From Candidatus Methylomirabilis lanthanidiphila (GTDB lineage: Bacteria; Methylomirabilota; Methylomirabilia; Methylomirabilales; Methylomirabilaceae), in contig CABIKM010000041.1 in assembly GCA_902196205.1 (NCBI GenBank), forward strand, positions 1 through 22,456: a stretch of 22,456 nucleotides of DNA, written 5' to 3'. The notes beneath the pieces were generated by a model. It was not told where the DNA came from, made no database searches, and worked only from the letters and a program-made list of their open reading frames with translations. This document shows positions 3,790 to 22,456 of this stretch, in pieces; within the stretch, counting starts at the first letter, position 1, and every line of letters starts with the position of its first letter. A program made the position numbers and the translations under genes.

Positions 3790-4347
3790 CTATTTAAAGG
3801 CATAGTTGATGTAGACGTGGTACCCCATGAGCAGCAACAGCGCCATGGATAATCCGACATGGGCGATGATCCATAACGGCCTGTACCAAGGCGTGTGGAT
3901 TTGGCCGATTTGGAAATTGAACAGACCGGTGAAGAAGGCCAGCAACAACGTCAGGCTGAGGATTTCGAGATATCCATAGCCCAAGACTTGGGAATGGGTG
4001 AAGAAAGCCAACGGGACCATGGCGCCGAACAGTCTGTGGCGACTCATCATAGTTGCCGCGTTGTGCTTCTCCCCTTGGGCGCGCTTCAAGGAAAAGCGCC
4101 ATTGATAAAGGATAAACGCAAACAATCCGAAGCCTGTAACGAGCTTATACGTATTGTTGTCTTGCAGTCCGGTCAACATGGTCCACTGCCGCCCGGTCGA
4201 TTGCTGAGCAATCAGGGCCGCCAACAGAAACAGACCCAGCCAGAAATATCCTTTAGCGGGCAAACCGGCTCGTAGAGCACCAAGCAGCGACGCCCTGAGG
4301 CGGTTGATGTCTTGCAGAAAGACCAGGCTTTTAACGCGCGAGGGCAA
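3790..4347 (-). CDS. Polytopic membrane protein (4-5 TM helices) with His residues inside the helices; possible b-type cytochrome or DUF4405-like subunit
   Basis: Hydrophobic segments: YFWLGLFLLAALIA, YKLVTGFGLFAFILY, HRLFGAMVPLAFFTH, YLEILSLTLLLAFFTGLF, LWIIAHVGLSMALLLLMGYH. I place the start at TTG 4345-4347, preceded by AAGGAGGGAGGG. That overlaps the upstream gene by 17 nt. The ORF-track start at 4506 would lie inside that gene. The start call is uncertain. Confidence 0.5.
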   Translation of the reverse strand: MPSRVKSLVFLQDINRLRASLLGALRAGLPAKGYFWLGLFLLAALIAQQSTGRQWTMLTGLQDNNTYKLVTGFGLFAFILYQWRFSLKRAQGEKHNAATMMSRHRLFGAMVPLAFFTHSQVLGYGYLEILSLTLLLAFFTGLFNFQIGQIHTPWYRPLWIIAHVGLSMALLLLMGYHVYINYAFK

Positions 4348-5200: not shown

Positions 5201-5900
5201 CTTGACCTTGACCGTCCTGTTTGGCTTTATAGTGGAGATTTGTGCCGTAAGGAGAAGATCCGCCGTCAAAATAGGCGCGGATCTTCTCCGGCGGCGTTCG
5301 CTTCTCAACCGATTTCTCGATCTGCATGATGTGGTTGCCGTGAAAGTCGTGGCAGCCCAAGCAAGAGTCCCATTGCTTACGGGCGATCAGATCGGCATGG
5401 GGTACATCGATGGGATCTTTCTTCAAACGAGTGTCCTTATGGCAGTTCACGCAGTAGTCGATGGCCGTCAATGTGACCCGTCTGCCCTTGTGCTCAGCGT
5501 GGCAGGAGACGCACTGATGGGGGCGCAGCGTTTCCCGAGCTTGGCTAAAACGGGGTTCAAAGAAGCGGTAGACCGGGTGGCGGTCGTTTGGCCGCTCGTG
5601 ACAGGCCATACAGTCCGCATTACCCACGGGAAGCCGCCCGAAGAAGGCGGGCACTGCGCGCCGACCAAAGGCATGGCGAAGGTTGGCCTGAATCTGCTGG
5701 CGGAAGCTGCCTGGCGCATTTTTGTGACAGGCCGCGCAGCCAAGCTTACTGTGGCCTGTGTTCATGGGTCCTTTAGCGTGAAACCACTCCCCGATGCGAA
5801 GCACCGTAAACGCCGTGATCCCGAGTCCCACACAGAGGCCGACCAGATAGGCGCGGTTTTGCCACGTTCTCGGACCTCCAGCTTTCGCTCCCGTAGTCAC
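5193..5900 (-). CDS. Membrane-anchored pentaheme c-type cytochrome
   Basis: Five CxxCH motifs: CAACH, CMACH, CVSCH, CVNCH, CLGCH. N-terminal TM anchor AYLVGLCVGLGITAFTVLRI. GTG start. Confidence 0.8.
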   Translation of the reverse strand: MTTGAKAGGPRTWQNRAYLVGLCVGLGITAFTVLRIGEWFHAKGPMNTGHSKLGCAACHKNAPGSFRQQIQANLRHAFGRRAVPAFFGRLPVGNADCMACHERPNDRHPVYRFFEPRFSQARETLRPHQCVSCHAEHKGRRVTLTAIDYCVNCHKDTRLKKDPIDVPHADLIARKQWDSCLGCHDFHGNHIMQIEKSVEKRTPPEKIRAYFDGGSSPYGTNLHYKAKQDGQGQDG

Positions 5901-6095
5901 GACCTTAAGCTACGCGTGAGAAACTAATAGTTGATACATGAGACCTTACTCTATTTGCTGAATAACTGATCGGTGACAAAAAATAACCAAGGAACGCTTA
6001 TCCCTTGATGCTGGTCCAACACACATATTGATCCCGACAGCTACGTTCGTTCAACTAAGCCCAACACACGTCTAATGCGCTACCAATCCGGGCTG

Positions 6096-6482
6096 TCACC
6101 GACTTGACGTCCTAGTAAAGCTTCTGATATAGACCACCAGGTCCTTGATCTCGGGCTCGGAAAGCTTTAATTTATACGCGGGCATCCCCCCCTTGCTACC
6201 CTGCTTTATACTTCGAAAGAGGGCGTCATCGGACCGTGCTTGCATATAGGCCAAATCGGTCAAATCTGGCATCTTGAACATAAAAAAAAGTGCCAATGCC
6301 TGAAACCCGTTCCCCTTGCCGGTTGCACCGTGGCATCTGGCACATCTCGCCTCGAAGTTCGACTGTCCGCTTGCCGCGCCTTTGGTTTCCGCACCAAACA
6401 CGGGAGCAGCCTCCACAATGAGCAGCATCATTACCACCAATAACCACTGGCAACAAAGCCGATACAGAACACAAACGCGCAT
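6096..6482 (-). CDS. Class I monoheme cytochrome c, secreted
   Basis: Start moved to ATG 6480-6482, preceded by GGGAGGG plus 8 nt. Signal peptide MRVCVLYRLCCQWLLVVMMLLIVEAAPVFG; heme site CARCHG; distal GGMPAY. Confidence 0.8.
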   Translation of the reverse strand: MRVCVLYRLCCQWLLVVMMLLIVEAAPVFGAETKGAASGQSNFEARCARCHGATGKGNGFQALALFFMFKMPDLTDLAYMQARSDDALFRSIKQGSKGGMPAYKLKLSEPEIKDLVVYIRSFTRTSSR

Positions 6483-6580
6483 CTTAATATCCCTCCCATC
6501 AGTGTGAGTGAGTGGTGAATGATTATGAGCAATGGAATGTAACGAGAACGAAGTAAGGCAGCCTGACAATCTAGACCTAC

Positions 6581-6620
6581 AGAACAGGAGGAGGCCCGCC
6601 ATGGGGCTTCCTCCTGTTCT
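6581..6620 (-). terminator. 17-bp stem-loop between the 95-aa ORF and the cytochrome c gene
   Basis: AGAACAGGAGGAGGCCC (6581-6597) pairs with GGGCTTCCTCCTGTTCT (6604-6620); 16 Watson-Crick pairs plus one G-T position, 6-nt loop. It lies 27 nt downstream of the stop at 6647. No clear U-tract. Confidence 0.45.
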
Positions 6621-6646
6621 GAGAACGGCCGTAGTCACCAAGTCTC

Positions 6647-6934
6647 TCACTCGATCATTTGCAGGACCCGACTCTGGACATGAGAGGCTACTGTCATCAG
6701 CTCATTGCGAAGCTCCTTGCGCTCATCGAGGGCCAGAATCTTATCGAAGTTGCCGAAGTCGCCGACCTCAATCGTCACGATGCGCTCCAATTTGTTAGCG
6801 AGATGATCCCCGTAGACGTGGTACCTCGAGACCCCCGGATTCGAAAGCCAGAACTTCTTCATCTTGCCTGTCAAGAACTCATCTAACGCCTTTTCTTGTT
6901 CCGACTGAACCTCGCACATGATGTGGTAAACCAT
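6647..6934 (-). CDS. Small cytoplasmic protein of unknown function (95 aa); an alpha+beta ferredoxin-like fold is only a guess
   Basis: Clean ORF with AAAGGAGAAAGGGG upstream of the ATG and non-repetitive composition. I recognise no motif. Confidence 0.55.
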   Translation of the reverse strand: MVYHIMCEVQSEQEKALDEFLTGKMKKFWLSNPGVSRYHVYGDHLANKLERIVTIEVGDFGNFDKILALDERKELRNELMTVASHVQSRVLQMIE

Positions 6935-7207: not shown

Positions 7208-9637
7208 CTAGAAGGCCTCATCGCCGGCTGCCCAAGCTTCTCGCTCCTTCGCCTTCTCCTTATCGTAGATGGTCCATTCACCTTCCTCGACGACAGTAGC
7301 CTCACGGACCATTCGTCCTGCCCTTGACAGAATGAAATAGGCGAGCGGCAAGACGCCACCGAAGAGGAAGATCGCCCCACCGACGGTGCGCATCCACGTC
7401 AAGGTGATCCAGACATTATCCGTGACATGCGCCTGCGCTCGGGCAGCCCAGAGGCCTTGCTTGAAGACGGTCGCAACCTGGTACAGACCGACCGGGAACA
7501 GATCCAACATCATCATAAGCACCAAGCCGCTCTGCAGGGACCAGAACACCCCCTTAATCAGCTTCTCATTCCAAGCTGAGCGCTGGAACAGGTGCTGGCA
7601 CGCAAACAGCATACCGGCAATTGCGATGTTACCCTTGACGCCGAACATAGCCGCATGCGCATGGTTGCCGGTGAGGTAGGTGCCGTGCTCATAGTAGTTG
7701 ACGATGGGCAGGTTGATGAGCGAGCCGAAGACGCCCGCGCCGAAGATGTTCCAGAAGTTGACGGCCAGGATGAACGTCCAGACACCGTCCATCACGAAGC
7801 GCTGCTTGCCCTCGGCAATGTTTTCATAGGCCTTCACCCGCTCCGTCCGCATCTTCCAGGCATCCAGGGTAATCAAGAGCAACGGCAGCACCTGCATGGT
7901 GGAGAAGACGCTGCCCAGCGCGATGATCCCTGTTGGCTTGGCGATCCAGTAGAAGTTGTGGGAGATCCCGATCAGGGCGGTGACCAGGAACATCATGACG
8001 GCGAGGAAGATAACCCGCTCGGCCATGGCTCGGTTGACCAGACCCATCTGCACCAGCATGTAGCCCACGATACAGGTGGTGAAGACCTCGAAGGTCACCT
8101 CAACCCACATATGGATGTTCATCCACCGCCAGTAGTCCGCGATGGCGAAGTTCTGCGACGGGGTCATGAACATCCCGAAGAACAGGAACAGCACCATGAT
8201 GCCGCTGCCGTAGAACAGCCAAGCCGGCACCGACCAGAGGTTCTGGCTCGTGATCCACGGCTTCACGGCGCGGAAGATGATGAAGACCCACAGACAGAAC
8301 GAGGCCAGCATGAGGATATGCCAGAAGCGGCCGAGCTCCAGGAACTCCCAACCCTGGCTCCCGAACCAGTAGGCCATGTCGTCGCTGAAGTACCCGGTGT
8401 GGCCCAGATAGATGCCAAACAGCGCGCCGGCGCCCACGATCAGACACAACGTAAAGAGCAGGTTGATCAGGAAGCGCTGACCGTTGGGCACCTTGGAGAT
8501 CCTGGGCAGGAAGAAGAGGGTGTAGCCGACCCAGGCCATGAAGAACCAGTAGATCTGGACGATGGTATGCCAGCCTCTGGTAACGGTGAAGGGAATGGTG
8601 AATCCCAATACTGTGGTCGCGAGGGCGCTACCCGGTCCCCCACCGACGAAATCCTCTGCGCTCAGGATACCTGCCAGGACCTGCACCAGGAACAGGATCA
8701 CGGCAAACGCAAAGAACTTGTAGGTGGCACGCTGGGTCGGTCGCACATAGGCATCGCCCTTGTTTTCGAGGTCAACCGTGGTGAGCGACCAATCCCGCCC
8801 GTTGAACGGCTCGCCTGGCAGGGTTTTCATTTCACCGTACACATACAGGACCAGCATGGTGCCGCAAAACAGGACGAAGATCGAGATGAAGCTCCAGAGA
8901 TAGGTCTCGAACGTCGGAGTGTTACCGACCAACGGATCAGGCGGCCAGTTGTGGGTATAAGTATAGTCAAAACCCGGCCGATTTGCCCCCGAGACCCAGC
9001 CACCCCAGAAGAAATATCCTGCCAACGCCTTGAGGTCTTCAGGGTCGCTGATATGATTCTGGATTCGTCCCTTCATAAACGCTTCTTCATAGGTAGGATC
9101 CGTAAACGTCCGCGTGTAATGCGTGATTAACTCCTGGTACGCAAAGGCCTGCGCCGGATTGATTCGAATCAGGTTAGCCGCTTCGTCGTACCCGTTCTCG
9201 CGGATCTCTCGTCGTACCCTCACCGAGATCATGTCACGGTCGGCCTGAGTAACCGGACGATCTTTCGCGATCTCATTTTCGTAGAACTTGGTCATCGATA
9301 CATACGTATGGTGTAGGGCTTCTGCGGTGTAATCCGGCCCGCGTTCTCCTCCGTCGCCCCAGAACGAGCCATACGTCATCAGACCCTTCAGGTGGAATAC
9401 CTGCTTGCCACGCTGGATTTGCCACTCGGGAATCACCGTTTCTCCGGTAGATGACAATACATAATTAGTCAGTGGTGGAGCTGATGTATAGGTCCAGACA
9501 CCAAGCGCAACCAATCCGATAACACTAATACCGGTGACGATCGCAGCATGAAGCCACCAATATTTCTTTACCAACAACATTTGACCAAATGTTTTATGAC
9601 TCTTCGTGACCAATCCGCCCGAATGTGGACTCATCAT
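7208..9637 (-). CDS. nod: Quinol-NOR-like heme-copper oxidase with altered FeB and quinol sites; putative nitric oxide dismutase, copy 1 (809 aa)
   Basis: Start set at ATG 9635-9637 (CCGGAGGTACA-ATGATG). N-terminal TM helix, then a ~200-aa periplasmic domain without CxxCH, then the HCO core. Motifs: GWHTIVQIYWF, IHMWVEVTFEVF, GISHNFYWIAKP (His-Asn instead of His-His), STMQVLP, GNHAHAAMFG. Confidence 0.9.
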   Translation of the reverse strand: MMSPHSGGLVTKSHKTFGQMLLVKKYWWLHAAIVTGISVIGLVALGVWTYTSAPPLTNYVLSSTGETVIPEWQIQRGKQVFHLKGLMTYGSFWGDGGERGPDYTAEALHHTYVSMTKFYENEIAKDRPVTQADRDMISVRVRREIRENGYDEAANLIRINPAQAFAYQELITHYTRTFTDPTYEEAFMKGRIQNHISDPEDLKALAGYFFWGGWVSGANRPGFDYTYTHNWPPDPLVGNTPTFETYLWSFISIFVLFCGTMLVLYVYGEMKTLPGEPFNGRDWSLTTVDLENKGDAYVRPTQRATYKFFAFAVILFLVQVLAGILSAEDFVGGGPGSALATTVLGFTIPFTVTRGWHTIVQIYWFFMAWVGYTLFFLPRISKVPNGQRFLINLLFTLCLIVGAGALFGIYLGHTGYFSDDMAYWFGSQGWEFLELGRFWHILMLASFCLWVFIIFRAVKPWITSQNLWSVPAWLFYGSGIMVLFLFFGMFMTPSQNFAIADYWRWMNIHMWVEVTFEVFTTCIVGYMLVQMGLVNRAMAERVIFLAVMMFLVTALIGISHNFYWIAKPTGIIALGSVFSTMQVLPLLLITLDAWKMRTERVKAYENIAEGKQRFVMDGVWTFILAVNFWNIFGAGVFGSLINLPIVNYYEHGTYLTGNHAHAAMFGVKGNIAIAGMLFACQHLFQRSAWNEKLIKGVFWSLQSGLVLMMMLDLFPVGLYQVATVFKQGLWAARAQAHVTDNVWITLTWMRTVGGAIFLFGGVLPLAYFILSRAGRMVREATVVEEGEWTIYDKEKAKEREAWAAGDEAF

Positions 9638-9893
9638 TGTACCTCCGGTGGCCAAACCCATGTACCGGCCGGCCACACCTTGCTCACCTACAATCAACCC
9701 ACTTCACTCTGTAGCGCCAGCGGCTGCCTATCTATCGGGGGGGCGCGCACGTCACTGTCGGACAATAGCGCACGAAATCGACTACCTAAGCTTGACCGGG
9801 CAAGCAGTAGTGTGTCGATTGGTTGGCATTTGATCCATGGGATCGCGGTCATATTCAACTCCAAAGGAAAGTCTGGAAAGTTCATATACCTTT

Positions 9894-10446: not shown

Positions 10447-12888
10447 CTAGAACGCCTCGTCAGAAGCGGCCCAAGCTTCCCGCTCCTTCGCCTTCTCTTT
10501 GTCGTAGATCGTCCACTCGCCCTCTTCAACCACGGCGGCCTCGCGGACCATCCGTCCAGCCCTGGACAGGATGAACCAGCACAGAGGCAGAACACCACCG
10601 AAGAGGAAGACCGCGCCGCCGATCGACCGCAGCCAGGTCAGCGTATGCCAAACCTCGTTCGTGACGAACGACTGCTGTCGGCCGTACCAGAAACCATACT
10701 GGAAGATGTGTGCCAGCTGGTACAGACCAACCGGGAACATATCCATGAGCATCATCATGACGATGCCGACCTGCAGGGACCAGAACACGCCCTTGATCAG
10801 CTTCTCATTCCAAGCTGAGCGCTGGAACAGGTGCTGGCACGCAAACAGCATACCGGCAATCGCGATGTTACCCTTAACGCCGAACATGGCACCATGGGCA
10901 TGGTTGTTCGTGAGGTAGGTGCCGTGCTCGTAGTAGTTGACGATCGGCAGGTTGATGAGCGAGCCCATCACGCCTGCGCCGAAGATGTTCCAGAAGTTAA
11001 CGGCCAGGATGAACGTCCAGACGCCGTCCATCACGAAGCGCTGCTTGCCCTCAGCGAGGTGCTCGTGGGCCTTGGTCCGCTCCGTCCGCATCTTCCAGGC
11101 ATCCAGGGTGATCAAGAGCAACGGCAGCACCTGCATGGTGGAGAAGACGCTGCCCAGCGCGATGATCCCTGTCGGCTTGGCGATCCAGTAGAAGTTATGG
11201 GAGATGCCGATCAAGGCGGTGACCAGGAACATCATGACGGCGAGGAAGATAACCCGCTCGGCCATGGCCCGGTTAACCAGACCCATCTGGACCAGCATGT
11301 ACCCGACGATACAGGTCGTGAAGACCTCGAAGGTGACCTCAACCCACATATGGATGTTCATCCACCGCCAGTAGTCGGAGATGGCGAAGTTCTGCGACGG
11401 GGTCATGAACATGCCGAAGAACAGGAACAGCACCATGATGCCGCTGCCGTAGAACAGCCAGGCCGGCACCGACCAGAGGTTCTGGCTGGTGATCCAGGGC
11501 CGAACGGCGCGGAAGATGATGTAGACCCACAGACAGAACGAGGCCAGCATGAGGATATGCCAGAACCGGCCGAGCTCCAGGAACTCCCAACCCTGGCTGC
11601 CGAACCAGTAGGCCATATCGTCGGTCAGCAGGCCCGTGTGGCCCATATAGATGCCGAACAGGGCGCCGGCGCCGACGAGGACACATAGGGCAAAGAGCAG
11701 GTTGATCAGGAACCGCTGCCCGTTAGGCACCTTCGAGATCCTGGGCAAGAAGAAGAGGGTGTAGCCGACCCAGGCCATGAAGAACCAGTAGATCTGGACG
11801 ATGGCATGATAGCTTCGTACGACGCTGAAGGGGATCACGATCCCCAATGCGCCCAGGATCGATTCACCAGGTCCGCCACCGACGAAATCTTCTGCGCCCA
11901 GGATACCGGCCAGTACCTGCACCAGGAACAGGATCACAGCAAACGCAAAGAACTTGTAGGTAGCCCGCTGAGTCGGTCGCACGTAGGCATCGCCCTTGTT
12001 TTCAAGGTCGACCGTAGTAAGCGACCAATCGCGCCCGTTGAACGGCTCGCCGGGCAAAGACTTCATTTCACCGTAGACGTACAGGACCAGCATGGTACCC
12101 GCAAACAGGACGAGGATTGACAGGAAGCTCCAGATATACGTGGCGTACGTCGGGAGGTTACCGGCATCAGGATCGTACGGCCAGTTATGGGTGTAGCTGT
12201 AGATCTCGCCCGGTCGATTTGCGCCGGCTACCCAGCCGCCCCAGAAGAAGTAGCCCGCCAACCCCTTGATGTCGTCCGGATTGCTGATGTAGCTCGCGAT
12301 CCTACCCTTCTGGAACGCCTCTTCATAGGTAGGATCAGTGAACATCTTAGTGTAATGGTCGATCAACTCGTGATAGGCAAACACCTGCGCGTCGTTAAGG
12401 CGGATCACGCCGGCCGCCGCGTCATACCCATTCTGATGGATCTCTCGCTTGACCTTACCCGCGATCCCGTCCTTCTCATCTTGGGTGGCGGGGCGTCCCT
12501 GCGTTTTCTCGATCTGCAACTCATAATACTTGCCCATGGAGACGAAGGTGCGGTGCAGGGCCTCGGCGGTGAAATCCGGGCCGCGCTCTGCGCCATCACC
12601 CCAGAAGGAGCCGTACAACATCAGGCCCTTCAGATGGAACACCTGCTTGCCCCGGTTCATCGAATACTCGGGGATGACGACCTCTCCGGAGGTCGCCGAC
12701 ACGAAATTCACCAGAGGAGGAACGCCAGAATAGGTCCAGACGCCAAGAGCAATCAATCCGATGGTGCTAATCGCAGTAACGATCAAAGCATGAAGCCACC
12801 AATATTTCTTGATCAACAGGGCCTGGGCAAACGTCCTCTCCTGCTTGCCCTTACTTACGGTTCCGCTTCCGCTGGGATTCGGACTCAT
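10447..12888 (-). CDS. nod: Quinol-NOR-like heme-copper oxidase with altered FeB and quinol sites; putative nitric oxide dismutase, copy 2 (813 aa)
   Basis: Start set at ATG 12886-12888 (GGGAGGTAACA-ATG). Same motif set as copy 1, including GISHNFYWIAKP and NNHAHGAMFG. Long stretches are identical to copy 1. Confidence 0.9.
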   Translation of the reverse strand: MSPNPSGSGTVSKGKQERTFAQALLIKKYWWLHALIVTAISTIGLIALGVWTYSGVPPLVNFVSATSGEVVIPEYSMNRGKQVFHLKGLMLYGSFWGDGAERGPDFTAEALHRTFVSMGKYYELQIEKTQGRPATQDEKDGIAGKVKREIHQNGYDAAAGVIRLNDAQVFAYHELIDHYTKMFTDPTYEEAFQKGRIASYISNPDDIKGLAGYFFWGGWVAGANRPGEIYSYTHNWPYDPDAGNLPTYATYIWSFLSILVLFAGTMLVLYVYGEMKSLPGEPFNGRDWSLTTVDLENKGDAYVRPTQRATYKFFAFAVILFLVQVLAGILGAEDFVGGGPGESILGALGIVIPFSVVRSYHAIVQIYWFFMAWVGYTLFFLPRISKVPNGQRFLINLLFALCVLVGAGALFGIYMGHTGLLTDDMAYWFGSQGWEFLELGRFWHILMLASFCLWVYIIFRAVRPWITSQNLWSVPAWLFYGSGIMVLFLFFGMFMTPSQNFAISDYWRWMNIHMWVEVTFEVFTTCIVGYMLVQMGLVNRAMAERVIFLAVMMFLVTALIGISHNFYWIAKPTGIIALGSVFSTMQVLPLLLITLDAWKMRTERTKAHEHLAEGKQRFVMDGVWTFILAVNFWNIFGAGVMGSLINLPIVNYYEHGTYLTNNHAHGAMFGVKGNIAIAGMLFACQHLFQRSAWNEKLIKGVFWSLQVGIVMMMLMDMFPVGLYQLAHIFQYGFWYGRQQSFVTNEVWHTLTWLRSIGGAVFLFGGVLPLCWFILSRAGRMVREAAVVEEGEWTIYDKEKAKEREAWAASDEAF

Positions 12889-13101
12889 TGTTACCTCCCG
12901 TGGCTCTCCCTCTTTTGAGGTGGCCACTCATGCATTGTTATTACGGTGCCGTCTTTGCTGTGTTAGCCCTAGCCGCCGGGGGTGCGCGCGCTTCCCGAGC
13001 GACGTGCAGGGGACGGGTCCGACGGCACATGCCTGGTCGACCAAGCGGAGACCCGTCACGCTGCTTATTGTTTCTTATCCCGAACTTCATGGGGAACGCC
13101 T

Positions 13102-13253: not shown

Positions 13254-13445
13254 TCACGAACTCCCAGACCAGTATCGCGCATTAATCAAGGGTATGGCGT
13301 ATAAAACGAGGTTTATTCCGTTGGGCAGCAGGCCGCTGATTTGCTTGTCGGCCCGCGCTGTGGCGCTCACGAATGCTGTACTCCCTGGAACGAGATTATG
13401 ACTCACGAAGATGCTATTGATGGAATCTTGATAGATCGAGCCCAT
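13254..13445 (-). CDS. Possible 63-aa ORF coupled to the regulator through a TAATG stop/start overlap
   Basis: ATG 13443-13445 shares one nt with the regulator TAA (13445-13447). I see no motif and no independent support. Confidence 0.25.
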   Translation of the reverse strand: MGSIYQDSINSIFVSHNLVPGSTAFVSATARADKQISGLLPNGINLVLYAIPLINARYWSGSS

Positions 13446-14320
13446 TACGCTACCTTGGGGGGTTCTGTCGTCACACTCGGCGTCTGTCCGGTCTCTGTTC
13501 GAGTCGCAGGCTCCCGCCGCGCCATCTCGTTCACGTAGGCTACGGCCTCCAATCGTGAGTGAACCTTAAGCTTGCTGAAGATATTCTGAATGTGGTTTCT
13601 CACGGTGGTCTTACTGATAAAAAGCTGTTCAGCGATAGCTGCGGTCGTCGCACCAGTCCGCATCAGGGTAACGATCTGCAGTTCCCGCCGAGTGAGCTCA
13701 CCAACGGGAGAGACATTCTTCTCACTCATCGTGAGTTGCGTCTGAGCCAGTTGTTGCCGAACAAGCACCTCAAGTTGGTGTGCTGCTGTGACATCACGGA
13801 AAAGATGGACGACCGTCGGAGGCTGGTTGTCTTCGCTGGGAAGGGCCACACAGCTTACATCGATCCACAGCGGTTTGCCCGTCCTCGTCCGCGTAGCCAT
13901 CTCAAAATGCTGAATCAGGTCTCCACGGCTCAAAGTCATCTTGAGTGGACAGGGCCACTGACAGAGTTGATTGCCGTTGCTGTCGCGGCCATTGAAAAAC
14001 TCGCGGCACTGTTGTCCGACGACCTGCTGCGCAGACGCTTCCAGGATCTTTTCGGCAGCAGGATTGCAAAACAGGATTTCCCCGGTCGGCGCACTGACAA
14101 ATACACCATCGGCGGTCTCCGCGAAAAGTCTAAAAGCGGCTTCCCGTGGCTCCATAGATTGTACGTCCCCGGATTCGCCTCGCGGACTCTCTCTATTAAC
14201 CGCCGGTCGATCCTCACCCCTACGGCGAGACTTTGCCTCGCCGCTGGAACCATCGTTAGGTCGCCGGTCCGGCCGATGGATTCGTCCCGAATGTTTCGAT
14301 CCATTGCCTGGATGTACCAT
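13445..14320 (-). CDS. PAS-domain LuxR/GerE-type (HTH) transcriptional regulator with a Cys triad in the PAS domain
   Basis: PAS-like block FRLFAETADGVFVSAPTGEILFCNPAAEKILE. C-terminal LuxR HTH LTRRELQIVTLMRTGATTAAIAEQLFISKTTVRNHIQNIFSKLKV. Start is uncertain: ATG 14320 is chosen, ATG 14155 is also possible, and the ORF-track TTG 14434 would overlap the divergent promoter candidate. Confidence 0.75.
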   Translation of the reverse strand: MVHPGNGSKHSGRIHRPDRRPNDGSSGEAKSRRRGEDRPAVNRESPRGESGDVQSMEPREAAFRLFAETADGVFVSAPTGEILFCNPAAEKILEASAQQVVGQQCREFFNGRDSNGNQLCQWPCPLKMTLSRGDLIQHFEMATRTRTGKPLWIDVSCVALPSEDNQPPTVVHLFRDVTAAHQLEVLVRQQLAQTQLTMSEKNVSPVGELTRRELQIVTLMRTGATTAAIAEQLFISKTTVRNHIQNIFSKLKVHSRLEAVAYVNEMARREPATRTETGQTPSVTTEPPKVA

Positions 14321-14395
14321 GGTCTTACTATAACGAGTGTCGATGGAGCCTGTCAAGCTGAAAAGAGGTGTACACCCGCAGGCTGAAGAAAACCC

Positions 14396-14425
14396 TTGAC
14401 AGCGGGCTGCGGGCTGTGCAATAGT
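14396..14425 (+). promoter_or_regulatory. Candidate sigma70-type promoter for the porin gene (TTGACA-N18-AATAGT)
   Basis: TTGACA at 14396-14401 and AATAGT at 14420-14425, about 180 nt upstream of ATG 14605. Pattern match only. Confidence 0.35.
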
Positions 14426-14604
14426 CACGCCCAACCTACGATCTATGTCCTACTGCACGTCCCCCAAAGAGGTTGGGGAACCCGCGTACACCGCGAGGAT
14501 CGTCTCATCGGGGCGGAGGCTTTTGGGCGCCCCGCATCAGCAAAGCGCTCTGAATTCGAGAGCACGGTGGTCAACCTAAAGAAAAGAGCAGAGGGAGGAG
14601 GATC

Positions 14605-16146
14605 ATGGCGCAGAGAAGGTGGTGGGTTCGTGGTGCGGTCTTAGGCAGCGCCTTGCTGCTTACCCCGGTGGGGGCATGGGCCGACAAGCTCACAGAGCTT
14701 GAGCAAGCCTTTGAGACGCAGCAGAAGTCGCTGCAGCAGTTGCAGCAAGAGATGCAGCGGCTGCGACAGGAGCGAGTCACGCAGCAGGAAGAGGTAACCA
14801 GGCGCGTGATGGAGGTGGAGAAGAAGGCCGCGGACGCCGCAGCTTCATCGCTCCAAACCGGATTTGACCCATGGCCAGGGAAGGGGTTCTACCTGAAGTC
14901 GGCCGATGGTCAGCACCGGCTGAACATTGGCGGCTACGTGCAGACCTTGGCGCAAGTTGAGGCGTCTAGAAATGAAGAGGATGTCACGCCAGCGGGCAGC
15001 GGAGGGGGCCTAAACGACAGGCAGGCAGCGATCAATCGACACCGCCCCAGCACGCTGAAGTTGCACCGCGTCCGGGTCATCTTCAACGGCACGATCTTCA
15101 GGGATTTCGGCTTCCACATCGAGCCGGAGTTCACGGGCGGTGCTTCCGGCACCCGGATCGAAACCGGCTTTGTGACCTACACCTACATGCCTTGGGCCCG
15201 GGTAACCGTCGGGCAGATGCGGCATCAGTACAGCCTTGAGCAGGGCATGGCCACGCAGGACCTGGACTTCGCCGCTCAGCGGTCATTTGTCAACAGGGCC
15301 TTCTCTCCTGACCTGCAGATGGGTATCCTCCTTAACGGCAATACGAAACTCGCCGACATGCCCATCTACTACGGGTTCGGTATCTTTAACGGATGCGGCC
15401 GGGTCGATCAGTGCCCAGGCAGCGTGGATAACGATGGTGACAAGGAGTACACGGGCCGGATGACGATCTCGCCCCCGATGCCCATGGGGAATCTCACCGT
15501 CGGCGTGAACGCGGACTTCCGCACCTTCAACATCGTACGGGGCAGTGGCGCGACCGACACCAACGGCGTGACGAACCCTGTCGGTGGCGGCTCCAAGTTC
15601 CACCGCTTTAACCCGGTAAGCACGCTGGGCGACAAATTTGGAGGTGACGGTAACGGCACCAGCCAAAACGGTTTCCTCATCAACGGCGACCGCGTCACTA
15701 CCGGCGCCGACATCGTATTTGACTTCTATCCGTTCATCCTCAAGGGCGAGTTCCACTACGCCTCTCAGGAGCGCGACGGATTGGGAACGGGCAGCAACAC
15801 GAATCTCGATGACCTCCGCATGATGGGCGGCTATGGCACGCTCGGCTATTGGGTCTTCGGCAACAAGCTGAAGGGCCTGCTGGTCAACGGCCGCTACGAG
15901 CACCTGCGGGTCGATGACACCAAGGGGAGCTTCACTCCCTCTAGTGCATCTCCCAATACAGAGCGGGAGTTGAGGGTGCGCGCCGGAACGCTCGGTTTGA
16001 CCTGGTATGCCAACCCCAACGTTTTCGTGCGGGCCAACTATCTGCTGACCGACGTCACGCCGGGGAAGAACGTCTTTGGAGTGAGCAACAACACGCAAGG
16101 TGAGCTGACCCATCAGGGTATTGCCGAACTGATGGTCAGATTCTAA
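14605..16146 (+). CDS. Outer-membrane porin, OprO/OprP (phosphate/anion-selective porin O_P) family, with an N-terminal coiled-coil segment
   Basis: GGGAGGAGG SD. Signal peptide ending VGAWA. Gln/Glu-rich heptad-like stretch LTELEQAFETQQKSLQQLQQEMQRLRQE. Family-like blocks FYLKSADGQHRLNIGGYVQ, LHRVRVIFNGTIFRDFGFHIEPEF and VTVGQMRHQYSLEQ. C-terminal beta-barrel signature ELMVRF. Confidence 0.8.
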   Translation: MAQRRWWVRGAVLGSALLLTPVGAWADKLTELEQAFETQQKSLQQLQQEMQRLRQERVTQQEEVTRRVMEVEKKAADAAASSLQTGFDPWPGKGFYLKSADGQHRLNIGGYVQTLAQVEASRNEEDVTPAGSGGGLNDRQAAINRHRPSTLKLHRVRVIFNGTIFRDFGFHIEPEFTGGASGTRIETGFVTYTYMPWARVTVGQMRHQYSLEQGMATQDLDFAAQRSFVNRAFSPDLQMGILLNGNTKLADMPIYYGFGIFNGCGRVDQCPGSVDNDGDKEYTGRMTISPPMPMGNLTVGVNADFRTFNIVRGSGATDTNGVTNPVGGGSKFHRFNPVSTLGDKFGGDGNGTSQNGFLINGDRVTTGADIVFDFYPFILKGEFHYASQERDGLGTGSNTNLDDLRMMGGYGTLGYWVFGNKLKGLLVNGRYEHLRVDDTKGSFTPSSASPNTERELRVRAGTLGLTWYANPNVFVRANYLLTDVTPGKNVFGVSNNTQGELTHQGIAELMVRF

Positions 16147-16253: not shown

Positions 16254-16505
16254 ATGAAGTTCATCACATTAGCGAAGGTCAGACCTGGCGCGTGGGCGAG
16301 GCTGGCACACGATCTTCCCGCTGCCTGTTACGAGGGGATGAAGTCGGCCCATGTGGTCTACGGCCAATATGATGTGGTATTCGAGTGGGAAGCCAAGGAT
16401 CTGGAGACGGCCAATAAGATCATGAAACATATGACCGGATCCGATCTCCTCACATCCGAGACGTTGGTCGTTGCGTCCACCCTGAAGGAGTTCGGTCAGA
16501 TATAG
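16254..16505 (+). CDS. GYD-domain protein (83 aa)
   Basis: GGGAGGT SD. Motif YGQYDVVFEWEA, followed by TSETLVV, in a protein of family-typical size. Confidence 0.7.
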   Translation: MKFITLAKVRPGAWARLAHDLPAACYEGMKSAHVVYGQYDVVFEWEAKDLETANKIMKHMTGSDLLTSETLVVASTLKEFGQI

Positions 16506-16592: not shown

Positions 16593-16725
16593 CTAGTGCT
16601 TGATTGCAATAATACCCGTAACGTCATTCCCGCAGTCCTTAAGCGGGAATCCATTGATTCTACTGGATACCCGCTTCGGCGGGTATGACGATTTATGCGC
16701 GTCAACTATTGCAATTAAGCACTAG
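16593..16725. repeat. 133-bp nested inverted-repeat element (MITE-like, or a structured RNA)
   Basis: Terminal 18-bp inverted repeats CTAGTGCTTGATTGCAAT (16593-16610) and ATTGCAATTAAGCACTAG (16708-16725), with one mismatch. They enclose hairpin A, ATTCCCGC-9 nt-GCGGGAAT (16626-16650), and hairpin B, ATACCCGC-TTCG-GCGGGTAT (16667-16686). Confidence 0.6.
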
Positions 16726-16816
16726 CCCCTTCCAAGAAGATTACAACTACTCGCCTCCGACGCTTTCTCGTCTCCCCAAGGGCCCGCCTCGGCTTATTCA
16801 ACGCGCAACAGTAGGC

Positions 16817-16845
16817 TTGACAAACTCATACACATGCTTTATTCT
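16817..16845 (+). promoter_or_regulatory. Candidate sigma70-type promoter upstream of ftsH (TTGACA-N17-TATTCT)
   Basis: TTGACA at 16817-16822 and TATTCT at 16840-16845, about 245 nt upstream of the ftsH GTG. Pattern match only. Confidence 0.35.
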
Positions 16846-17087
16846 GGCTTTGTTTAATTCAGCCCGAGCCATACACCAGCCATCCGGGTCAAGAGCGAGG
16901 CGCGCACCGGCTGGTCGTGCTGGCGACCTCCCTAGATCGGTCGCAAGCACGCCGATGAGAGAAAATTGGAGGGCTGACGATGGCAATACAAGGGATTGGT
17001 AGCTAAGAACGTGTCTTTTTTCATAACGTCTCGAGAGCTTGACAGCCGATTTCGGGGCGTCGGGACGGCACAAAGGAGGTCATTGCC

Positions 17088-19025
17088 GTGAACAAGCGTT
17101 ATGTCAAGATTGCGGGTATCGTCGCCATGATCCTTGTGGTCACGGCTGTGGCCTTTCTCCCGTTTTACTCGAACCGCCAGAAATCTTCTACACAGGTTAT
17201 CTTCAGCGACTTCATGGATTTGGTGGAATCGGGACAGATCGCCGGCACGGTGATCTTCAACGAAAACACCCATACGATTTATGGCCATGTGGCGTCCGGG
17301 CAGCATCTACGCACCGTCTACAGCAAAGAGGCCACCGCGTCTCTCCAGGAGCTCCTGAAATCCAAAGGGATTCGCTTTGCGGTGGAACCGCAAAGCGGAG
17401 GCTCTATTTGGGTTGGCCTGTTGTTCAACTTCCTGCCGTTCCTGTTGATTATCGGTTTGTTCGTAATGATGAGCCGTCGGTCCCAGATGGGGGGAGGAGG
17501 CGGCCCCATGTCGTTCGGTAAGTCCAAGGCGAAGCTACATGACGCGTCTAAACCAAAGGTGACATTCGCGGATGTGGCGGGTGAGGAAGAGCCGAAGGAG
17601 GAATTGGAAGAGGTCATCATGTTCCTGAAACACCCCCAGAAGTTTCAGGCGCTGCATGCCAAGATCCCGAGGGGCTTGCTGTTGGTGGGACCTCCGGGTT
17701 GCGGCAAGACGCTTCTCGCCAAAGCGGTAGCCGGAGAGGCCGGGGTCCCGTTCTTCTCGCTTTCCGGATCAGAATTCGTTGAGGTGTTTGTCGGTGTCGG
17801 CGCCAGCCGCGTCCGCGATCTGTTCGAGCAAGCCAAGAAGAACGCCCCTTGTCTGGTATTCATCGATGAGATCGATGCGGTGGGCCGTCACCGTGGGGCG
17901 GGGCTCGGCGGCGGCAACGATGAGCGTGAACAGACGCTGAACCAACTGCTGGTGGCAATGGATGGCTTTGAGGGCAATATCGGGATCATCGTCATCGCCG
18001 CTACCAACCGTCCGGATATTTTGGATCCCGCGCTGCTGCGCCCCGGACGATTTGATCGCCGGATTATTGTGGACAATCCGGATAGTAAGGGCCGTAAGGC
18101 GATCCTGCAGGTGCACCTGCGCGAAATGCCATTGGCGGCAGATGTCAACGTTGATGTACTCGCTAAGCAGACGCCCGGCTTTTCTGGAGCGGATCTGGCA
18201 GCCGTTGTAAACGAGGGCGCGCTCCTAGCCGCCCGGCGTGATAAAGATCGCGTCAGTATGGTCGACTTTGACGAGGCGGTCGAGCGCATCATCGCCGGGC
18301 CCCTGCGGCGCAGTCGGGCTCTCACTCCGAAGGAGCGCGAGATGGTCGCCTACCATGAGGCCGGCCACGCCATCCTACGAAAGCTTCTTCCTAAGGCTGA
18401 TCCGCCCCACAAGGTGACGATCGTGTCCCGCGGAATGGCGCTTGGCTATGTGATGGGGGCCCCGCCGGAGGATCGATACACCCGCACTCGCTCCGAATTG
18501 CTGGACGAGGTCAGTGTGGGCATGGGGGGGCGGGTGGCTGAGGACCTCATCTTCGGCGAGATTACGACCGGGGCTTCAAACGACTTTGAGCAGGCCACCA
18601 ACATGGTCCGCCGAATGGTGACGAATTTCGGAATGTCCGATAAGCTCGGTCCGGTCACACTGGGCAGGCAAGGAGGGCCGGTCTTTCTTGGCCGCGACAT
18701 GATCGACAGTCGCAACTACAGCGAGGAGATTGCCTATCAGATCGACCAGGAGGTGCGGCGCATCATCGACGAGTGTTACCAGAACGCGCGCCAGACGATC
18801 GAGGCGAACCGGGAGAAGCTGCAGCGGGTTGCGAAGGCCCTCATGGAGCGCGAAACCCTCTATGCGGAGGAGTTGGACGACGTCATGGCGGGAAAGGTGG
18901 TCGCGCTGGAACCCGTACGACCGGCCGGCGTCGAAGCAGCCGTCGAACCAAGCGCAAGCGTCGAAGCGACGGCGCGTCAGCGGGCACGCCTGGGGCACCC
19001 GCGCCGCCACCACCAGCCTAACTGA
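17088..19025 (+). CDS. ftsH: ATP-dependent zinc metalloprotease FtsH
   Basis: AAGGAGG followed by 8 nt and GTG. Two N-terminal TM helices. Walker A GPPGCGKT, Walker [33 protein letters not shown], zinc site HEAGHA. Confidence 0.95.
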
Positions 19026-19091: not shown

Positions 19092-19122
19092 TCCCCTTCC
19101 CCCTTACGTGGGGGGAAGGGGA
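19092..19122 (+). terminator. GC-rich 12-bp stem-loop downstream of ftsH
   Basis: TCCCCTTCCCCC (19092-19103), loop TTACGTG, GGGGGAAGGGGA (19111-19122). It starts about 66 nt after the ftsH stop. No U-tract. Confidence 0.45.
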
Positions 19123-19305: not shown

Positions 19306-20073
19306 TTATGCCGTTTTCTTCTTCCGTCTGACGTAGAGCACGGCGCCTATGGCGACGCCTGCGATAGCGGTTACCAGAATGCCCGGATTACTCATCATGG
19401 AGGAACTACCGCTACTGGATCGGGGCGCCTTCAGACCAACCGTAAAGGGGAAGCTGAACGTCGAATCGTGAGCGTGATACACATCTTCCTCAGCCGAACT
19501 CGCATGTTTCTCGCTCACCGCTACGACGCCCTCGTGGCCATGCGCGGCGTTGCCGCCACCCCCGGCGTGTGATTCAACCCGCTCCTCGACCTCCAGGACA
19601 GCCTTATATTTCCCCGCCTTCGCAAAATCGGTCTCCGCTTTGACGACACCGGAGGGATAAACCTGTTGCGGGATGTAAAGGACCGTCCCGGAGTCGCTCC
19701 GCTCAGAGACCTCCACTACCCGGACCGCCACCGGGATCTTGCGCAGCGCATCGCTCATAAGATCAAAAGTCAGTGTCGCCTTGCCCGTTTTCGGGATGTC
19801 TCGACAGTACGACCTGAACTCCTCCTTCATAGCATCCAGGTACCGCCTGAGATCGGCATCTTTAAGCTCTTTGAGCACCTCAAGTTGGGTGGCTCCCGTC
19901 CCGGTGGCCGCATGCTGATAAGCGCTGAAGTGGATGAAATACTGCCCCTTTTCTATTGAGCAGAGATCGTTGTCCGTGATCCCGCCCATGCCACCCCCGC
20001 CATGCGCCCATGCCTGAGACACCCAGACCAACCCCATCAGAACAGCACATGCAGCCATTGCCCGATACTTCAT
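19306..20073 (-). CDS. Secreted, C-terminally membrane-anchored His/Gly-rich protein; candidate copper-handling accessory of pMMO (PmoD-like architecture, unproven)
   Basis: Start moved to ATG 20071-20073, giving MKYRAMAACAVLMGLVWVSQAWA|HGGGGMGG. His clusters HAGGGGNAAHGHEG and YHAHD. C-terminal TM helix ILVTAIAGVAIGAVLYV followed by RRKKK. Confidence 0.6.
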   Translation of the reverse strand: MKYRAMAACAVLMGLVWVSQAWAHGGGGMGGITDNDLCSIEKGQYFIHFSAYQHAATGTGATQLEVLKELKDADLRRYLDAMKEEFRSYCRDIPKTGKATLTFDLMSDALRKIPVAVRVVEVSERSDSGTVLYIPQQVYPSGVVKAETDFAKAGKYKAVLEVEERVESHAGGGGNAAHGHEGVVAVSEKHASSAEEDVYHAHDSTFSFPFTVGLKAPRSSSGSSSMMSNPGILVTAIAGVAIGAVLYVRRKKKTA

Positions 20074-20231
20074 TGCCCTACCTGCTACCTTCCTGAGCGT
20101 CCCATCTACGCCTTTGAGTCTCCACCTTACCCTGCACCGCAGAGCTAACCCGGCGGGCAGGGGTCCCACCCCTGGACATGAACGATAGAGCCTCCAGGGA
20201 TGGGACCTTCACGCACCCGCACACCCTTAAC

Positions 20232-20315
20232 TTACGCCTGGTTCACCAGTGTAATAAGGACAAACAACAGCATGAGCAGCAACGCAAGATTCATCCCTTG
20301 AGCAGCGAATTCCAT
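20232..20315 (-). CDS. Unannotated 27-codon single-TM mini-ORF immediately after pmoB (MEFAAQGMNLALLLMLLFVLITLVNQA)
   Basis: AAGGAG (reverse complement of 20326-20331) abuts the pmoB TAG. The ATG at 20313-20315 lies 10 nt downstream of it, and the TAA is at 20232-20234. The ORF is below the ORF-track length cutoff. Confidence 0.35.
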   Translation of the reverse strand: MEFAAQGMNLALLLMLLFVLITLVNQA

Positions 20316-20332: not shown

Positions 20333-21604
20333 CTATTTGTACTGAGTCGTCGGTCGCCACTTGCCTCCGCCGGACAGCGCGGTGGCACCACCCTCAAAGG
20401 ACGGAATCACGGGGCCGCCCACCTCTACAATCTGCCGATTCTTGTCGGCGTCAAAGAACTCGAGCAAACCGCCGTACCGGCTGTCCGAGTCATAGATCAA
20501 CTCGGCCAACCGCTGGTACTCCCATTCCGCATCGGTAGCATCTATTGACATCGTGACGGTCTGGCCGGGGGCGATGGGACCGGCGGGCTCGACCTTGATT
20601 TTCAGCCGCGAGTCGGGGAACAGCGCCGGATCACGGAACTGCAGATTGGCCGTGATGAATCCCCCCAGGTGCTGCGGCCTATTGGAGCCGTTGGTCACCT
20701 CAATCACCATCCCGAGAGATCGCCCAGGCACCGTATAGACGGCAGTGACAGGTCGGGCCTTCACGGTAGCATGGGCGTACGGCGTAAAGTCTGTCGTTGG
20801 TCGGAGTTCAGGCGTATCCATCCTACCGGTCTGAAGCGGAATCGTAATCGGGTAGGCGCCGTTGGTAGTCACGTAGCCGATGGCCACAATAAGAACCGTC
20901 GCGATCATGAGGACCAGCCCCACCGTTCGATCACCGGAGCTGACAAGCTCCTCCTCAGGCACGACCCCCACCAGGAAAATTCGGCGCGTAAACGGCCGCA
21001 CGACCCAATATCCCAGCCAGAATACCCCAATGACGGTCCACAGCAGCCACCAGCCGATGATCCGGCCCTGGCCATGGTTCTCCATGTTGATCGTCTGGCC
21101 GTCGATGGTGGTAACATTGTTTTCAAAGTTACTCCAATCACCGTCAACCGTCACAAACTCACCGCCACCAACCAGGGGGCCTCCACCCTCGATATTGACC
21201 ATCGGGTGAACATGATAGGTCCCGGTGACCCGCCCCATAATATTCATTCGATAATCATAGTCTCCGCCAAGTTGAGTGCTGGTGGCGTTGATCACGGGCA
21301 TGCCATTCATCCATGCCTCTTTCTTCAGCATCGATGGCCCCGGTACAGAGTAGTGGAGAAAGATCGACTCGGGGGTATTGACGGCCCGCGGCCATTCACT
21401 GAACGTATGAAACTTGCCTGTGAGATCCATCGTCTCACCGGGCTTCACTCGGGCCTTTGACCACTTGGTATCGTAGAACGTTATCGTACGCATCCGGAGA
21501 AACGGCTCCTGCGATCGTTCGCCATGGGCCCATGCCGTTGTTCCCGCGGACACGGCGATCACTCCAAGTAGGATCGCCGACAACGCTGCTCGTCCTATCC
21601 TCAT
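20333..21604 (-). CDS. pmoB: Particulate methane monooxygenase subunit B (423 aa precursor)
   Basis: Start moved to ATG 21602-21604 (AGGAGGATAACA-ATG). Signal peptide ...TTAWA|HGERSQEPFLRMRT. The YHVHPM histidine pair is present, and there are two TM helices mid-protein (WWLLWTVIGVFWLGYWV, GLVLMIATVLIVAIGYV). Confidence 0.9.
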   Translation of the reverse strand: MRIGRAALSAILLGVIAVSAGTTAWAHGERSQEPFLRMRTITFYDTKWSKARVKPGETMDLTGKFHTFSEWPRAVNTPESIFLHYSVPGPSMLKKEAWMNGMPVINATSTQLGGDYDYRMNIMGRVTGTYHVHPMVNIEGGGPLVGGGEFVTVDGDWSNFENNVTTIDGQTINMENHGQGRIIGWWLLWTVIGVFWLGYWVVRPFTRRIFLVGVVPEEELVSSGDRTVGLVLMIATVLIVAIGYVTTNGAYPITIPLQTGRMDTPELRPTTDFTPYAHATVKARPVTAVYTVPGRSLGMVIEVTNGSNRPQHLGGFITANLQFRDPALFPDSRLKIKVEPAGPIAPGQTVTMSIDATDAEWEYQRLAELIYDSDSRYGGLLEFFDADKNRQIVEVGGPVIPSFEGGATALSGGGKWRPTTQYK

Positions 21605-21724
21605 TGTTATCCTCCTGCCTCGCTTATGGATAAGGGTCGACTCATTCGTACCGCAGTAGGTGGTGGGGCCTTCGTCCATTGATGGTTCATCCGGAAAATC
21701 CACCACAGCCCGCGTCGACGACAG

Positions 21725-22456
21725 CTACGTCCGCGACAGCCATACCGGCTTGCTGATCCACTTTCCCATAAACATCCACCAGACATACACGAGCCCGCTG
21801 ATGAACCCGGCGAAGAATGAGGAGACCGGCGTGACGTCTCGTCCGAAGGTTCGCAGCGTCCCTCGCTCCACGATCCTGATGTACTCGGGCGTCGCGGAGC
21901 GCACATACTCCATCCCCATCAGATCGGCGATCGACATGAGCGGCCCGCTTGGGTGCTTGACGGCCAGGTGGAACGGCGCCAGCCAAGTCCAGTTTGCGGG
22001 ATAAAACAACAGCGACCACCCCATGCCGCCGAACAGCGCCGTAAACATGTAGCTTCCCGTCATCATCAACATGACGTCCAGGAAGATCGCGCTGGGGATC
22101 ATCAGACCAGGGGTGGTAAAATTGACCGGGAACCAAGCCCAATAGTAGAAGTTGAAGACACGGTTCATCCATTGACCGAAGTGAAGCGTCATAATACAAA
22201 AAGTCGCACCGATCGGCAGACGCATCTTTTCCCACATAAAATATTGCGTCGCCGCAGGGAAGGTAATCAGCAGAATCGGTGTCAACGTGACCCACCAGCG
22301 CCGATCCTTCCAGTCCAGCCAGAAGTCCCAGTCGCCGACAGTCAGCATCTGGTGAATATGATAGCCGGCCACCGTACCGGTGAATGCAGCGACGATGATA
22401 ATGATATCAAACTTTCGCTCCAGGCTTGCAGCTTGCTGTTGTGACAAGAGCGCCAT
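21725..22456 (-). CDS. pmoA: Particulate methane monooxygenase subunit A (243 aa; the ATG sits exactly at the window edge)
   Basis: GYHIHQMLTVGDWDFWLDWKDRRWW, FPAATQYFMWEKMRLP and TPEYIRIVERGTLRTFGRDV match PmoA/AmoA signature blocks. The length is within 4 aa of Methylococcus PmoA as I remember it. The upstream sequence cannot be inspected. Confidence 0.9.
   Translation of the reverse strand: MALLSQQQAASLERKFDIIIIVAAFTGTVAGYHIHQMLTVGDWDFWLDWKDRRWWVTLTPILLITFPAATQYFMWEKMRLPIGATFCIMTLHFGQWMNRVFNFYYWAWFPVNFTTPGLMIPSAIFLDVMLMMTGSYMFTALFGGMGWSLLFYPANWTWLAPFHLAVKHPSGPLMSIADLMGMEYVRSATPEYIRIVERGTLRTFGRDVTPVSSFFAGFISGLVYVWWMFMGKWISKPVWLSRT

Follow-up and report, generated by a model that had tools for sequence, protein, structure and literature searches.

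We examined pmoA and pmoB of Candidatus Methylomirabilis lanthanidiphila, which lie at the right-hand end of a stretch of 22,456 nucleotides, called the window here (bases 1-22456 of contig C41, which is 22,509 b long and extends 53 bases past it), together with the neighbourhood that connects them with a pair of putative nitric oxide (NO) dismutase genes, nod. Methylomirabilis is the textbook example of a bacterium believed to produce O2 internally from NO and so to oxidise methane in the absence of air; to our knowledge, no purified Nod has been shown to function as an enzyme. The source assembly (G000; 3,048,664 b in 90 contigs) represents a described methanotroph (PMC6094997), and was compared with the complete genome of M. 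oxyfera (G004; a single contig of 2,752,854 b) and with other genomes of the genus. A first-pass annotation, made from the letters of the window, had recognised pmoA and pmoB and had placed their closeness to nod in the context of the intra-aerobic pathway. The genes concerned are:

20333..21604, minus strand: pmoB, 423 residues; CuB ligands His27, His131 and His133; bis-His site Thr42/His66; signal peptide ending in AWA, before H
21725..22456, minus strand: pmoA, 243 residues, complete; the window ends exactly at its ATG
7208-9697 and 10447-12927, minus strand: two tandem qNor-like putative NO dismutase (nod) genes, 95-96% identical to the copies in G004

Identity and copper ligands of the monooxygenase

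The two pmo assignments were borne out by protein family profiles and by solved structures. The pmoB open reading frame (ORF) spans 20333-21706(-), but translation probably begins at the ATG at 21604 (MRIGRAAL), which has aggagg upstream; PmoB residues are numbered from this Met. PmoB matched Pfam Monooxygenase_B (PF04744) over the whole profile (1-380 of 380; E 4e-122, 408.5 bits, cut-off 22.7) and NCBIfam AmoB_BACT (NF041640) with 431.6 bits, above the cut-off of 336; against TIGR03079 it scored 367.8 bits, under that model's own cut-off of 394.9. The NCBIfam model name says 'ammonia monooxygenase'. The closest solved structure was PmoB of Methylococcus capsulatus Bath (E 1.6e-105). PmoA matched Pfam AMO (PF02461; E 1.5e-97, 326.7 bits) and NCBIfam NF041557 (338.9 bits, cut-off 290), and its closest solved structure was Bath PmoA (1yew_B; E 8.5e-92, residues 3-241). 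PmoB and PmoA are 95% and 94% identical, respectively, to their counterparts in M. oxyfera.

The 53 contig bases beyond the window contain the pmoA ribosome-binding site (GGAGGG) and a G/C-rich hairpin. The third gene, pmoC, is located outside the window on C90, the smallest contig of the assembly (918 b), whose end matches the start of the C41 reverse complement, with a few mismatches, over the G/C-rich hairpin upstream of pmoA. From this overlap and from the arrangement in six relatives, we infer that pmoC adjoins pmoA in the source assembly. M. oxyfera carries two pmoC copies with equal scores, ~94 kb apart, and a collapsed repeat is therefore the likely cause of the contig break at pmoC: assembly most likely set the gene apart on the 918-bp contig by merging it with a near-identical second copy located elsewhere. 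The leader of one pmoC copy, in the last ~400 b of the reverse strand of contig C35 and joining C90:1-17, contains two tandem units of ~85 nt, each of which terminates in CAAAGGAGGTGAGAGC(C/T)GGCA(T/G)CAAC.

In the first-pass annotation, four PmoB residues had been matched to copper-site positions of the Bath enzyme. All four correspondences proved correct when read from a HMMER alignment to the solved M. capsulatus Bath PmoB, the check that the annotation itself had proposed. Bath His33 is His27 here (AWA-HGERSQ, after signal cleavage), and Bath His137 and His139 are His131 and His133 (YHVHPM); these CuB ligands are invariant in ten Methylomirabilis PmoB sequences. At the bis-His site, Bath His72 is His66 (GKFHTF), and Bath His48 is Thr42 (RTITFYD versus RTIHWYD), so that the site lacks its first His. 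Thr occupies the His48 position in 10/10 Methylomirabilis sequences, and Asn occupies it in both solved Methylocystis enzymes (3rfr and 4phz; RMRTLNWYD). PmoC encoded on C90 retains the CuC motif EQDGTWH...PSH (Asp, His, His) and the CuD motif NEWGH...PLH (Asn, His, His). The CuB, CuC and CuD ligands are thus all kept, and judged by these residues the enzyme looks like a conventional copper particulate methane monooxygenase (pMMO).

The PmoB copper site had been called partly divergent. This is accurate for the exchange of His48 for Thr, but the change is confined to the bis-His site, leaves CuB in place, has its counterpart in the Methylocystis Asn and is uninformative. One could take Thr as the mark of a different PmoB copper centre, suited to internally made O2 at very low levels, given that it is invariant in the ten Methylomirabilis sequences and unlike both the gammaproteobacterial His and the alphaproteobacterial Asn. 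We consider such a centre extremely improbable. The bis-His residue His48 is not strongly conserved, and that site is occupied in the Bath enzyme only (PMC11725843); Methylocystis enzymes are active without His48; every CuB, CuC and CuD ligand is present; and M. oxyfera pMMO is stated to retain its metal-binding residues (PMC6094997, citing Reimann 2015). The bis-His site varies among active enzymes, so it is not family-defining; it is already regarded as dispensable. Since the His48 position is known to vary and Thr occupies it in all ten genus sequences, Thr42 is no meaningful divergence.

PmoB also has a C-terminal tail, EGGATALSGGGKWRPTTQYK, encoded by the last 20 codons of pmoB (20333-20395, minus strand), that extends past the IPSF end of the Bath enzyme. 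This 20-residue tail is nearly invariant in ten genus sequences that otherwise differ by up to 14%.

Conservation of the nod-pmo neighbourhood in the genus

We surveyed 20 species-representative genomes of the genus Methylomirabilis for the two gene types. pmoB was present in 11, a figure that includes G000 and a fragment of 25 residues, and the nod type in 12, and both were missing in seven. Gene order was read in the six relatives whose contigs were long enough for it (G004, G005, G010, G001, G019 and G012) and was identical in all six: nod-nod-PAS/LuxR-porin-GYD-ftsH-orf287-pmoB-pmoA-pmoC. The synteny comparison proposed in the first-pass annotation therefore gave a positive answer. Its distance of 7.4 kb between nod and pmo was also accurate, with 7,406 bases separating the GTG of nod (12927) from the stop codon of pmoB (20333); across the genomes with conserved order the nod-to-pmoB gap is 7.2-10.2 kb.

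The linkage extends to the nitrite reductase gene. nirS was found 14-19 kb beyond nod in all five genomes checked, and nitrite reductase, the nod pair and pMMO all fall within ~37-40 kb. For G000, the nirS distance follows from the way priA is split: its N-terminal half is where contig C9 ends, and its C-terminal part opens C41.

Five pmo-less genomes of the genus, G008 (94% complete) and G015-G018 (82-88% complete), were checked further. The whole set is absent from them: neither pmoB, pmoC nor the nod type was found, and true NirS was represented by partial matches only, at 41-45 bits versus ~430 bits. The orthologs of the intervening genes were likewise not found in these five genomes, whether FtsH (best match 52%, equal to the other FtsH genes of G000), the PAS-LuxR regulator or the porin (at most 50% identity), and the family of the PmoD-like protein encoded by orf287 had no match. 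In G008, priA, the methyltransferase, C-N hydrolase and nadE genes and the genes that lie beyond pmoC in M. oxyfera are all on one contig, from which the block is absent. A clean empty site in G008 was considered and rejected, as the flanks are rearranged and separated by ~16 kb of other DNA.

The three pmo-less genomes placed in a PriA tree form one clade within the genus (98/96), and six of the seven pmo-bearing genomes form another (99/99), with G001 left unresolved at the base. Because the pmo-less genomes form a single PriA clade, the co-occurrence of the genes reflects a single gain or loss. G008 and G015-G018 also stand as a clade within the genus that has no NirS, Nod, pMMO or PmoD-like genes, and the genus, as the database draws it, therefore has members that probably do not oxidise methane.

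Outside the genus, a search of 201 genomes of the phylum recovered no pmoB of this type and only two distant homologs (33-34% identity). These are at G041:C365:7626-8720 and G165:C175:4-696, both in another family of the same class, and may represent hydrocarbon monooxygenases or another kind of copper monooxygenase in non-methanotrophic Methylomirabilota.

Genes and transcription units between nod and pmo

The interval between pmoB and the nod pair contains the following features, listed from pmoB outwards:

20232..20315, minus strand: 27-codon ORF, one hydrophobic helix (MEFAAQGMNLALLLMLLFVLITLVNQA), with its own ribosome-binding site GGAAGGAG
20150..20207 (approximate), minus strand: stem-loop (15-bp stem, no T tract), 3' of the 27-codon ORF
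19306..20073 (likely ATG), minus strand: PmoD-family homolog (orf287), 255 residues; signal peptide AWA-HGGGG
17088..19025, plus strand: FtsH paralog (Pfam), transcribed towards pmo and convergent with it
16254-16505, plus strand: GYD-domain protein (Pfam GYD, 25.4 bits, below the 31.4-bit cut-off)
14605-16146, plus strand: porin, O/P family (Pfam), on the same strand as ftsH
13445..14434, minus strand: PAS-LuxR one-component regulator (Pfam GerE and PAS), upstream of the nod pair and divergent from the porin gene

The regulator, porin, ftsH and c-type cytochrome genes named in the first-pass annotation were recovered with Pfam as it had given them. A further candidate, orf105 (16685-17002), is improbable as a gene, with no family match and no counterpart in relatives.

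The 27-codon ORF begins ~18 nt past the pmoB stop and is shared by all seven Methylomirabilis genomes in the comparison; its codons vary synonymously among them, and its ribosome-binding site is retained. Small extra transmembrane subunits are known from Methylocystis pMMO (23 residues) and from the ammonia monooxygenase (AMO) of N. europaea (46 residues) (PMC11725843), and by analogy the product of this ORF is a candidate for a small pMMO-associated membrane peptide. The hairpin that follows folds at -55.7 kcal/mol over a 111-nt stretch (z -2.9); its stem is kept in relatives, with changes on both sides in G005. It has no T tract and is not a canonical terminator. Given its place ahead of the PmoD-like gene and after pmoB, it may mark the 3' end of an mRNA, serve in processing or act as an attenuator.

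The protein encoded by orf287 gave nothing meaningful against Pfam and NCBIfam. A profile of its family matched the soluble domain of PmoD (6cpd) with E 3.5e-11, and 6cpd was also the top Foldseek match of its AlphaFold model (E 2e-7, probability 1.0, target-normalised template modelling score 0.62). The next match had E 4e-3, leaving PmoD as the sole strong one; mean confidence of the model was 60.5 on the predicted local distance difference test (pLDDT) scale, with core blocks at 74-88. The protein has the pattern C38-x7-F46-x-H48...C90, a His-rich linker and a C-terminal membrane anchor, predicted as a helix at residues 230-254. Its 71 homologs are all labelled 'hypothetical' and come from Methylomirabilis/NC10 sources, except for two bins labelled otherwise. 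C38 and C90 are invariant in the family, and C38, H48 and C90 follow the spacing of the PmoD motif Cx7MxHxnC. The complete CuA motif was absent from the family, the Met position being Phe, Leu, Thr or Ile. CuA formation is confined to the Met-containing motif (Fisher et al. 2018, PMC6189053), so by this rule the Cx7FxHxnC pattern of orf287 leads us not to expect a CuA-like site. NC-10 methanotrophs have been stated to have pmoD homologs (PMC6189053), and orf287, by its sequence features, is an unannotated but already anticipated member of the PmoD family.

G000 encodes five PmoD-like paralogs, one of them next after the orphan pmoC. Besides orf287, the family members are:

C36:128-907: PmoD-like paralog
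C5:82517-83296: PmoD-like paralog
C46:26725-27501: PmoD-like paralog
C7:9327-10103: PmoD-like paralog

In M. oxyfera, a PmoD-like paralog follows the second (orphan) pmoC copy.

The FtsH paralog is the third FtsH of the genome and is ~52% identical to the other two in G000. Walker A, Walker B, the second region of homology and HEAGH are intact. Its orthologs in pmo-bearing genomes are 86-95% identical and always located between nod and pmo. Porin orthologs in the same genomes are 59-86% identical, and a 62% paralog is present elsewhere in G000; PAS-LuxR orthologs are 70-80% identical. By these comparisons, the FtsH and porin of the cluster are extra paralogs confined to cluster-bearing genomes and not housekeeping genes. 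The reservation that the nod-pmo linkage might be coincidental because ftsH and a porin gene intervene is weakened accordingly, as both paralogs travel only with the cluster. On the far side of nod, the cytochrome c/Tll0287-like module (3790-6934, nadE to nod) is present in G000, G004 and G010 and absent from G005 and G001. In the latter two (L019 and L023, respectively) nod abuts nadE, so that the module is a variable feature of the nod surroundings.

The nod-pmo region comprises at least four transcription units, one of which, porin-GYD-ftsH, is on the opposite strand. A canonical terminator follows the PmoD-like gene (19277-19249, minus strand), ftsH has a terminator-like site of its own (19092-19122, plus strand), the PAS-LuxR and porin genes diverge from TTGACA promoter-like sites at 14356(-) and 14396(+), and each nod gene has its own upstream region. 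A common nod-pmo operon was rejected in view of the opposing genes, the terminator-like sites between them and the lack of a common operator motif. With separate transcription units, any co-regulation of pmo with nod would therefore be exerted by trans-acting factors and not by read-through. A scan for FNR/CRP-type boxes gave 12 matches versus 7.3 expected, none of them in the control regions of nod or pmo. The 12-mer GTGCATTTGCAT, which precedes the nod genes, has only one other exact copy, at C17:36080 (plus strand) of G000.

Published expression data cover both gene sets. In M. oxyfera, transcripts and proteins of both nod genes rank with those of highest abundance (PMC3413370). In Ca. M. 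tolerans, transcription is high for NOD-1/2 and pmoABC alike and declines 10- to 100-fold in both, as it does for all other functional genes named (PMC8906906).

Significance of the clustering and comparison with known systems

Taken together, we conclude that pmoA and pmoB are very probably the closing pair of enzyme genes in the single pmoCAB operon of a Methylomirabilis genome, which encodes a conventional copper pMMO, within a conserved, co-inherited nirS-nod-pmo cluster of ~40 kb. The transcription unit would consist of pmoC-pmoA-pmoB, the 27-codon membrane-peptide ORF, the hairpin, the gene for the PmoD-like copper protein and the terminator. The cluster comprises nirS, a housekeeping run from priA to nadE, nod-nod, PAS/LuxR, the porin-GYD-FtsH paralog group, the PmoD-like gene and pmoBAC, and covers three consecutive intra-aerobic steps: nitrite to NO, NO to N2 and O2 (as proposed), and O2 plus methane to methanol. 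It would have been gained or lost, and inherited, as a block made of separate transcription units. Selection favouring joint inheritance or joint expression may lie behind such clustering, and the FtsH, porin and PmoD-like genes may serve pMMO or Nod.

Several observations weigh against this reading. Conserved gene order within one genus is expected anyway, and the pmoB type is confined to one genus among the 201 phylum genomes, with no independent lineage in which the linkage could be repeated. The presence/absence pattern fits a single gain or loss and amounts to one observation, not many. Most of the pmo-less genomes are only 82-88% complete, G008 alone reaching 94%. Because priA and the methyltransferase, C-N hydrolase and nadE genes stand between nirS and nod, the larger cluster is not purely made of pathway genes. 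The palindrome GTGCATNTGCATCG, which is upstream of both nod genes, occurs as a 14-mer nowhere else in the 3-Mb genome, the region upstream of pmoC included, and an exact k-mer search found no word of at least 11 bases common to the regions of nod, pmoC, the PmoD-like gene and the divergent promoters, so nothing points to a common operator. The earlier suggestion that the nod-pmo linkage fits the intra-aerobic pathway accordingly holds in part: the linkage is conserved and its genes are absent together from five congeners, but there is neither an operon nor a common operator, and the pattern traces to one event.

Some of these points also favour an alternative in which the proximity of nod and pmo is an accident of gene order that has no function and persists through the close kinship of the genomes. 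Its attraction is that all pmo-bearing genomes belong to one genus, that their distribution fits one event, and that the locus is divided into several transcription units with no common operator. By our own arithmetic, a given pair of loci would lie within 7.4 kb in a 3.05-Mb genome with p ~0.005, and some pair among about ten pathway loci (45 pairs) would do so with p ~0.2. Accident would nevertheless have to account for the clustering of three consecutive steps (nirS, nod and pmo) and not merely two, for intervening genes that are extra paralogs or families found only in pathway-bearing genomes, and for a block whose interior order is invariant while its edges vary, the cytochrome c module being missing from G005 and G001 and the flanks being rearranged in G008. 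We regard an accident as rather unlikely, and a recent horizontal transfer of the nod-to-pmoC block as a mobile island as considerably less likely still. The island would explain why the block is missing from the sister clade, with both flanks on one G008 contig, and would agree with its G+C fraction of 0.573 versus 0.592 for the genome. That difference is small, however, and no integrase or transposase appeared in the ORF list of the window or in the Pfam scans, although no search dedicated to mobility genes, tRNA genes or flanking repeats was made. The G008 site is not clean, with its rearranged flanks and ~16 kb of other genes between them, and the basal order of the PriA tree is unresolved, which makes loss in the pmo-less clade equally possible.

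The co-inherited nirS-nod-pmo cluster can also be read more boldly, with the ~20 kb from nod to pmoC as an 'intra-aerobic methane oxidation' module in which the FtsH protease and the outer-membrane porin, both dedicated to it, the PAS-LuxR sensor, the Met-less PmoD-like copper protein and the 27-residue peptide would be functional in the hand-over from NO to O2 to methane. FtsH is the protease that turns over the D1 protein of photosystem II, and the paralog here might likewise remove Nod or pMMO damaged by NO or O2; the small peptide might be one more subunit of pMMO. This proposal is speculative, and we think it unlikely as it stands.

Part of the locus is already known. The pmo genes have been published, and since the published locus tags put nod and pmo few genes apart, their proximity is readable from them: in M. 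lanthanidiphila, nod is mela_02433/02434, pmoB and pmoA are mela_02441/02442, and pmoC is the remote mela_03065 (PMC6094997); in M. oxyfera, the nod genes are named DAMO_2434 and DAMO_2437 and pmoBAC is DAMO_2448/2450/2451 (PMC6094997, PMC3413370). We found no comment on this proximity in the papers that we read. New here are the identical order in six relatives, the position of nirS 14-19 kb beyond nod, and the absence of the set from five pmo-less congeners. The pmo genes and copper ligands themselves add nothing new, and the value of the analysis is modest and comparative. The extras restricted to the cluster (FtsH paralog, porin, regulator, PmoD homolog and tiny membrane ORF) provide a short list of candidate accessory factors, which should be of use for reconstitution of the pathway or for a native pMMO structure from the source organism.

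The pmoCAB of Ca. M. oxyfera is said to have been reported by Ettwig in 2010. Its genes (DAMO_2451, 2450 and 2448) and their order are the same as those found here, and in the published M. lanthanidiphila draft (Versantvoort 2018, PMC6094997; mela_03065, 02442 and 02441 for pmoC, pmoA and pmoB) pmoC is likewise on a separate small contig; from the published pmo genes of both organisms the present ones show no difference of substance. With the solved pMMOs of M. capsulatus Bath (3rgb, 7s4h and others) and two Methylocystis strains (3rfr, 4phz), the Methylomirabilis enzyme has in common the three-subunit copper membrane monooxygenase architecture and the conserved ligands of CuC, CuD and, as histidines, CuB. 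It differs from them in the Thr that replaces Bath His48 or Methylocystis Asn, in the conserved 20-residue C-terminal tail of PmoB, and in its O2, which in vivo is thought to come from NO dismutation and not from air. The 27-codon ORF is comparable in length with a peptide of 23 residues seen attached to PmoC in the pMMO of Methylocystis sp. Rockwell (Tucci and Rosenzweig 2025, PMC11725843), a likeness by analogy only. The PmoD-like protein appears to have in common with PmoD/AmoD (PMC6189053; PDB 6cpd) a cupredoxin-like periplasmic domain, a C-terminal membrane helix, two Cys and one His, a location by pmo/amo genes and several paralogs per genome, whereas an additional predicted N-terminal His after signal cleavage, a helical insert and the His-rich linker set it apart.

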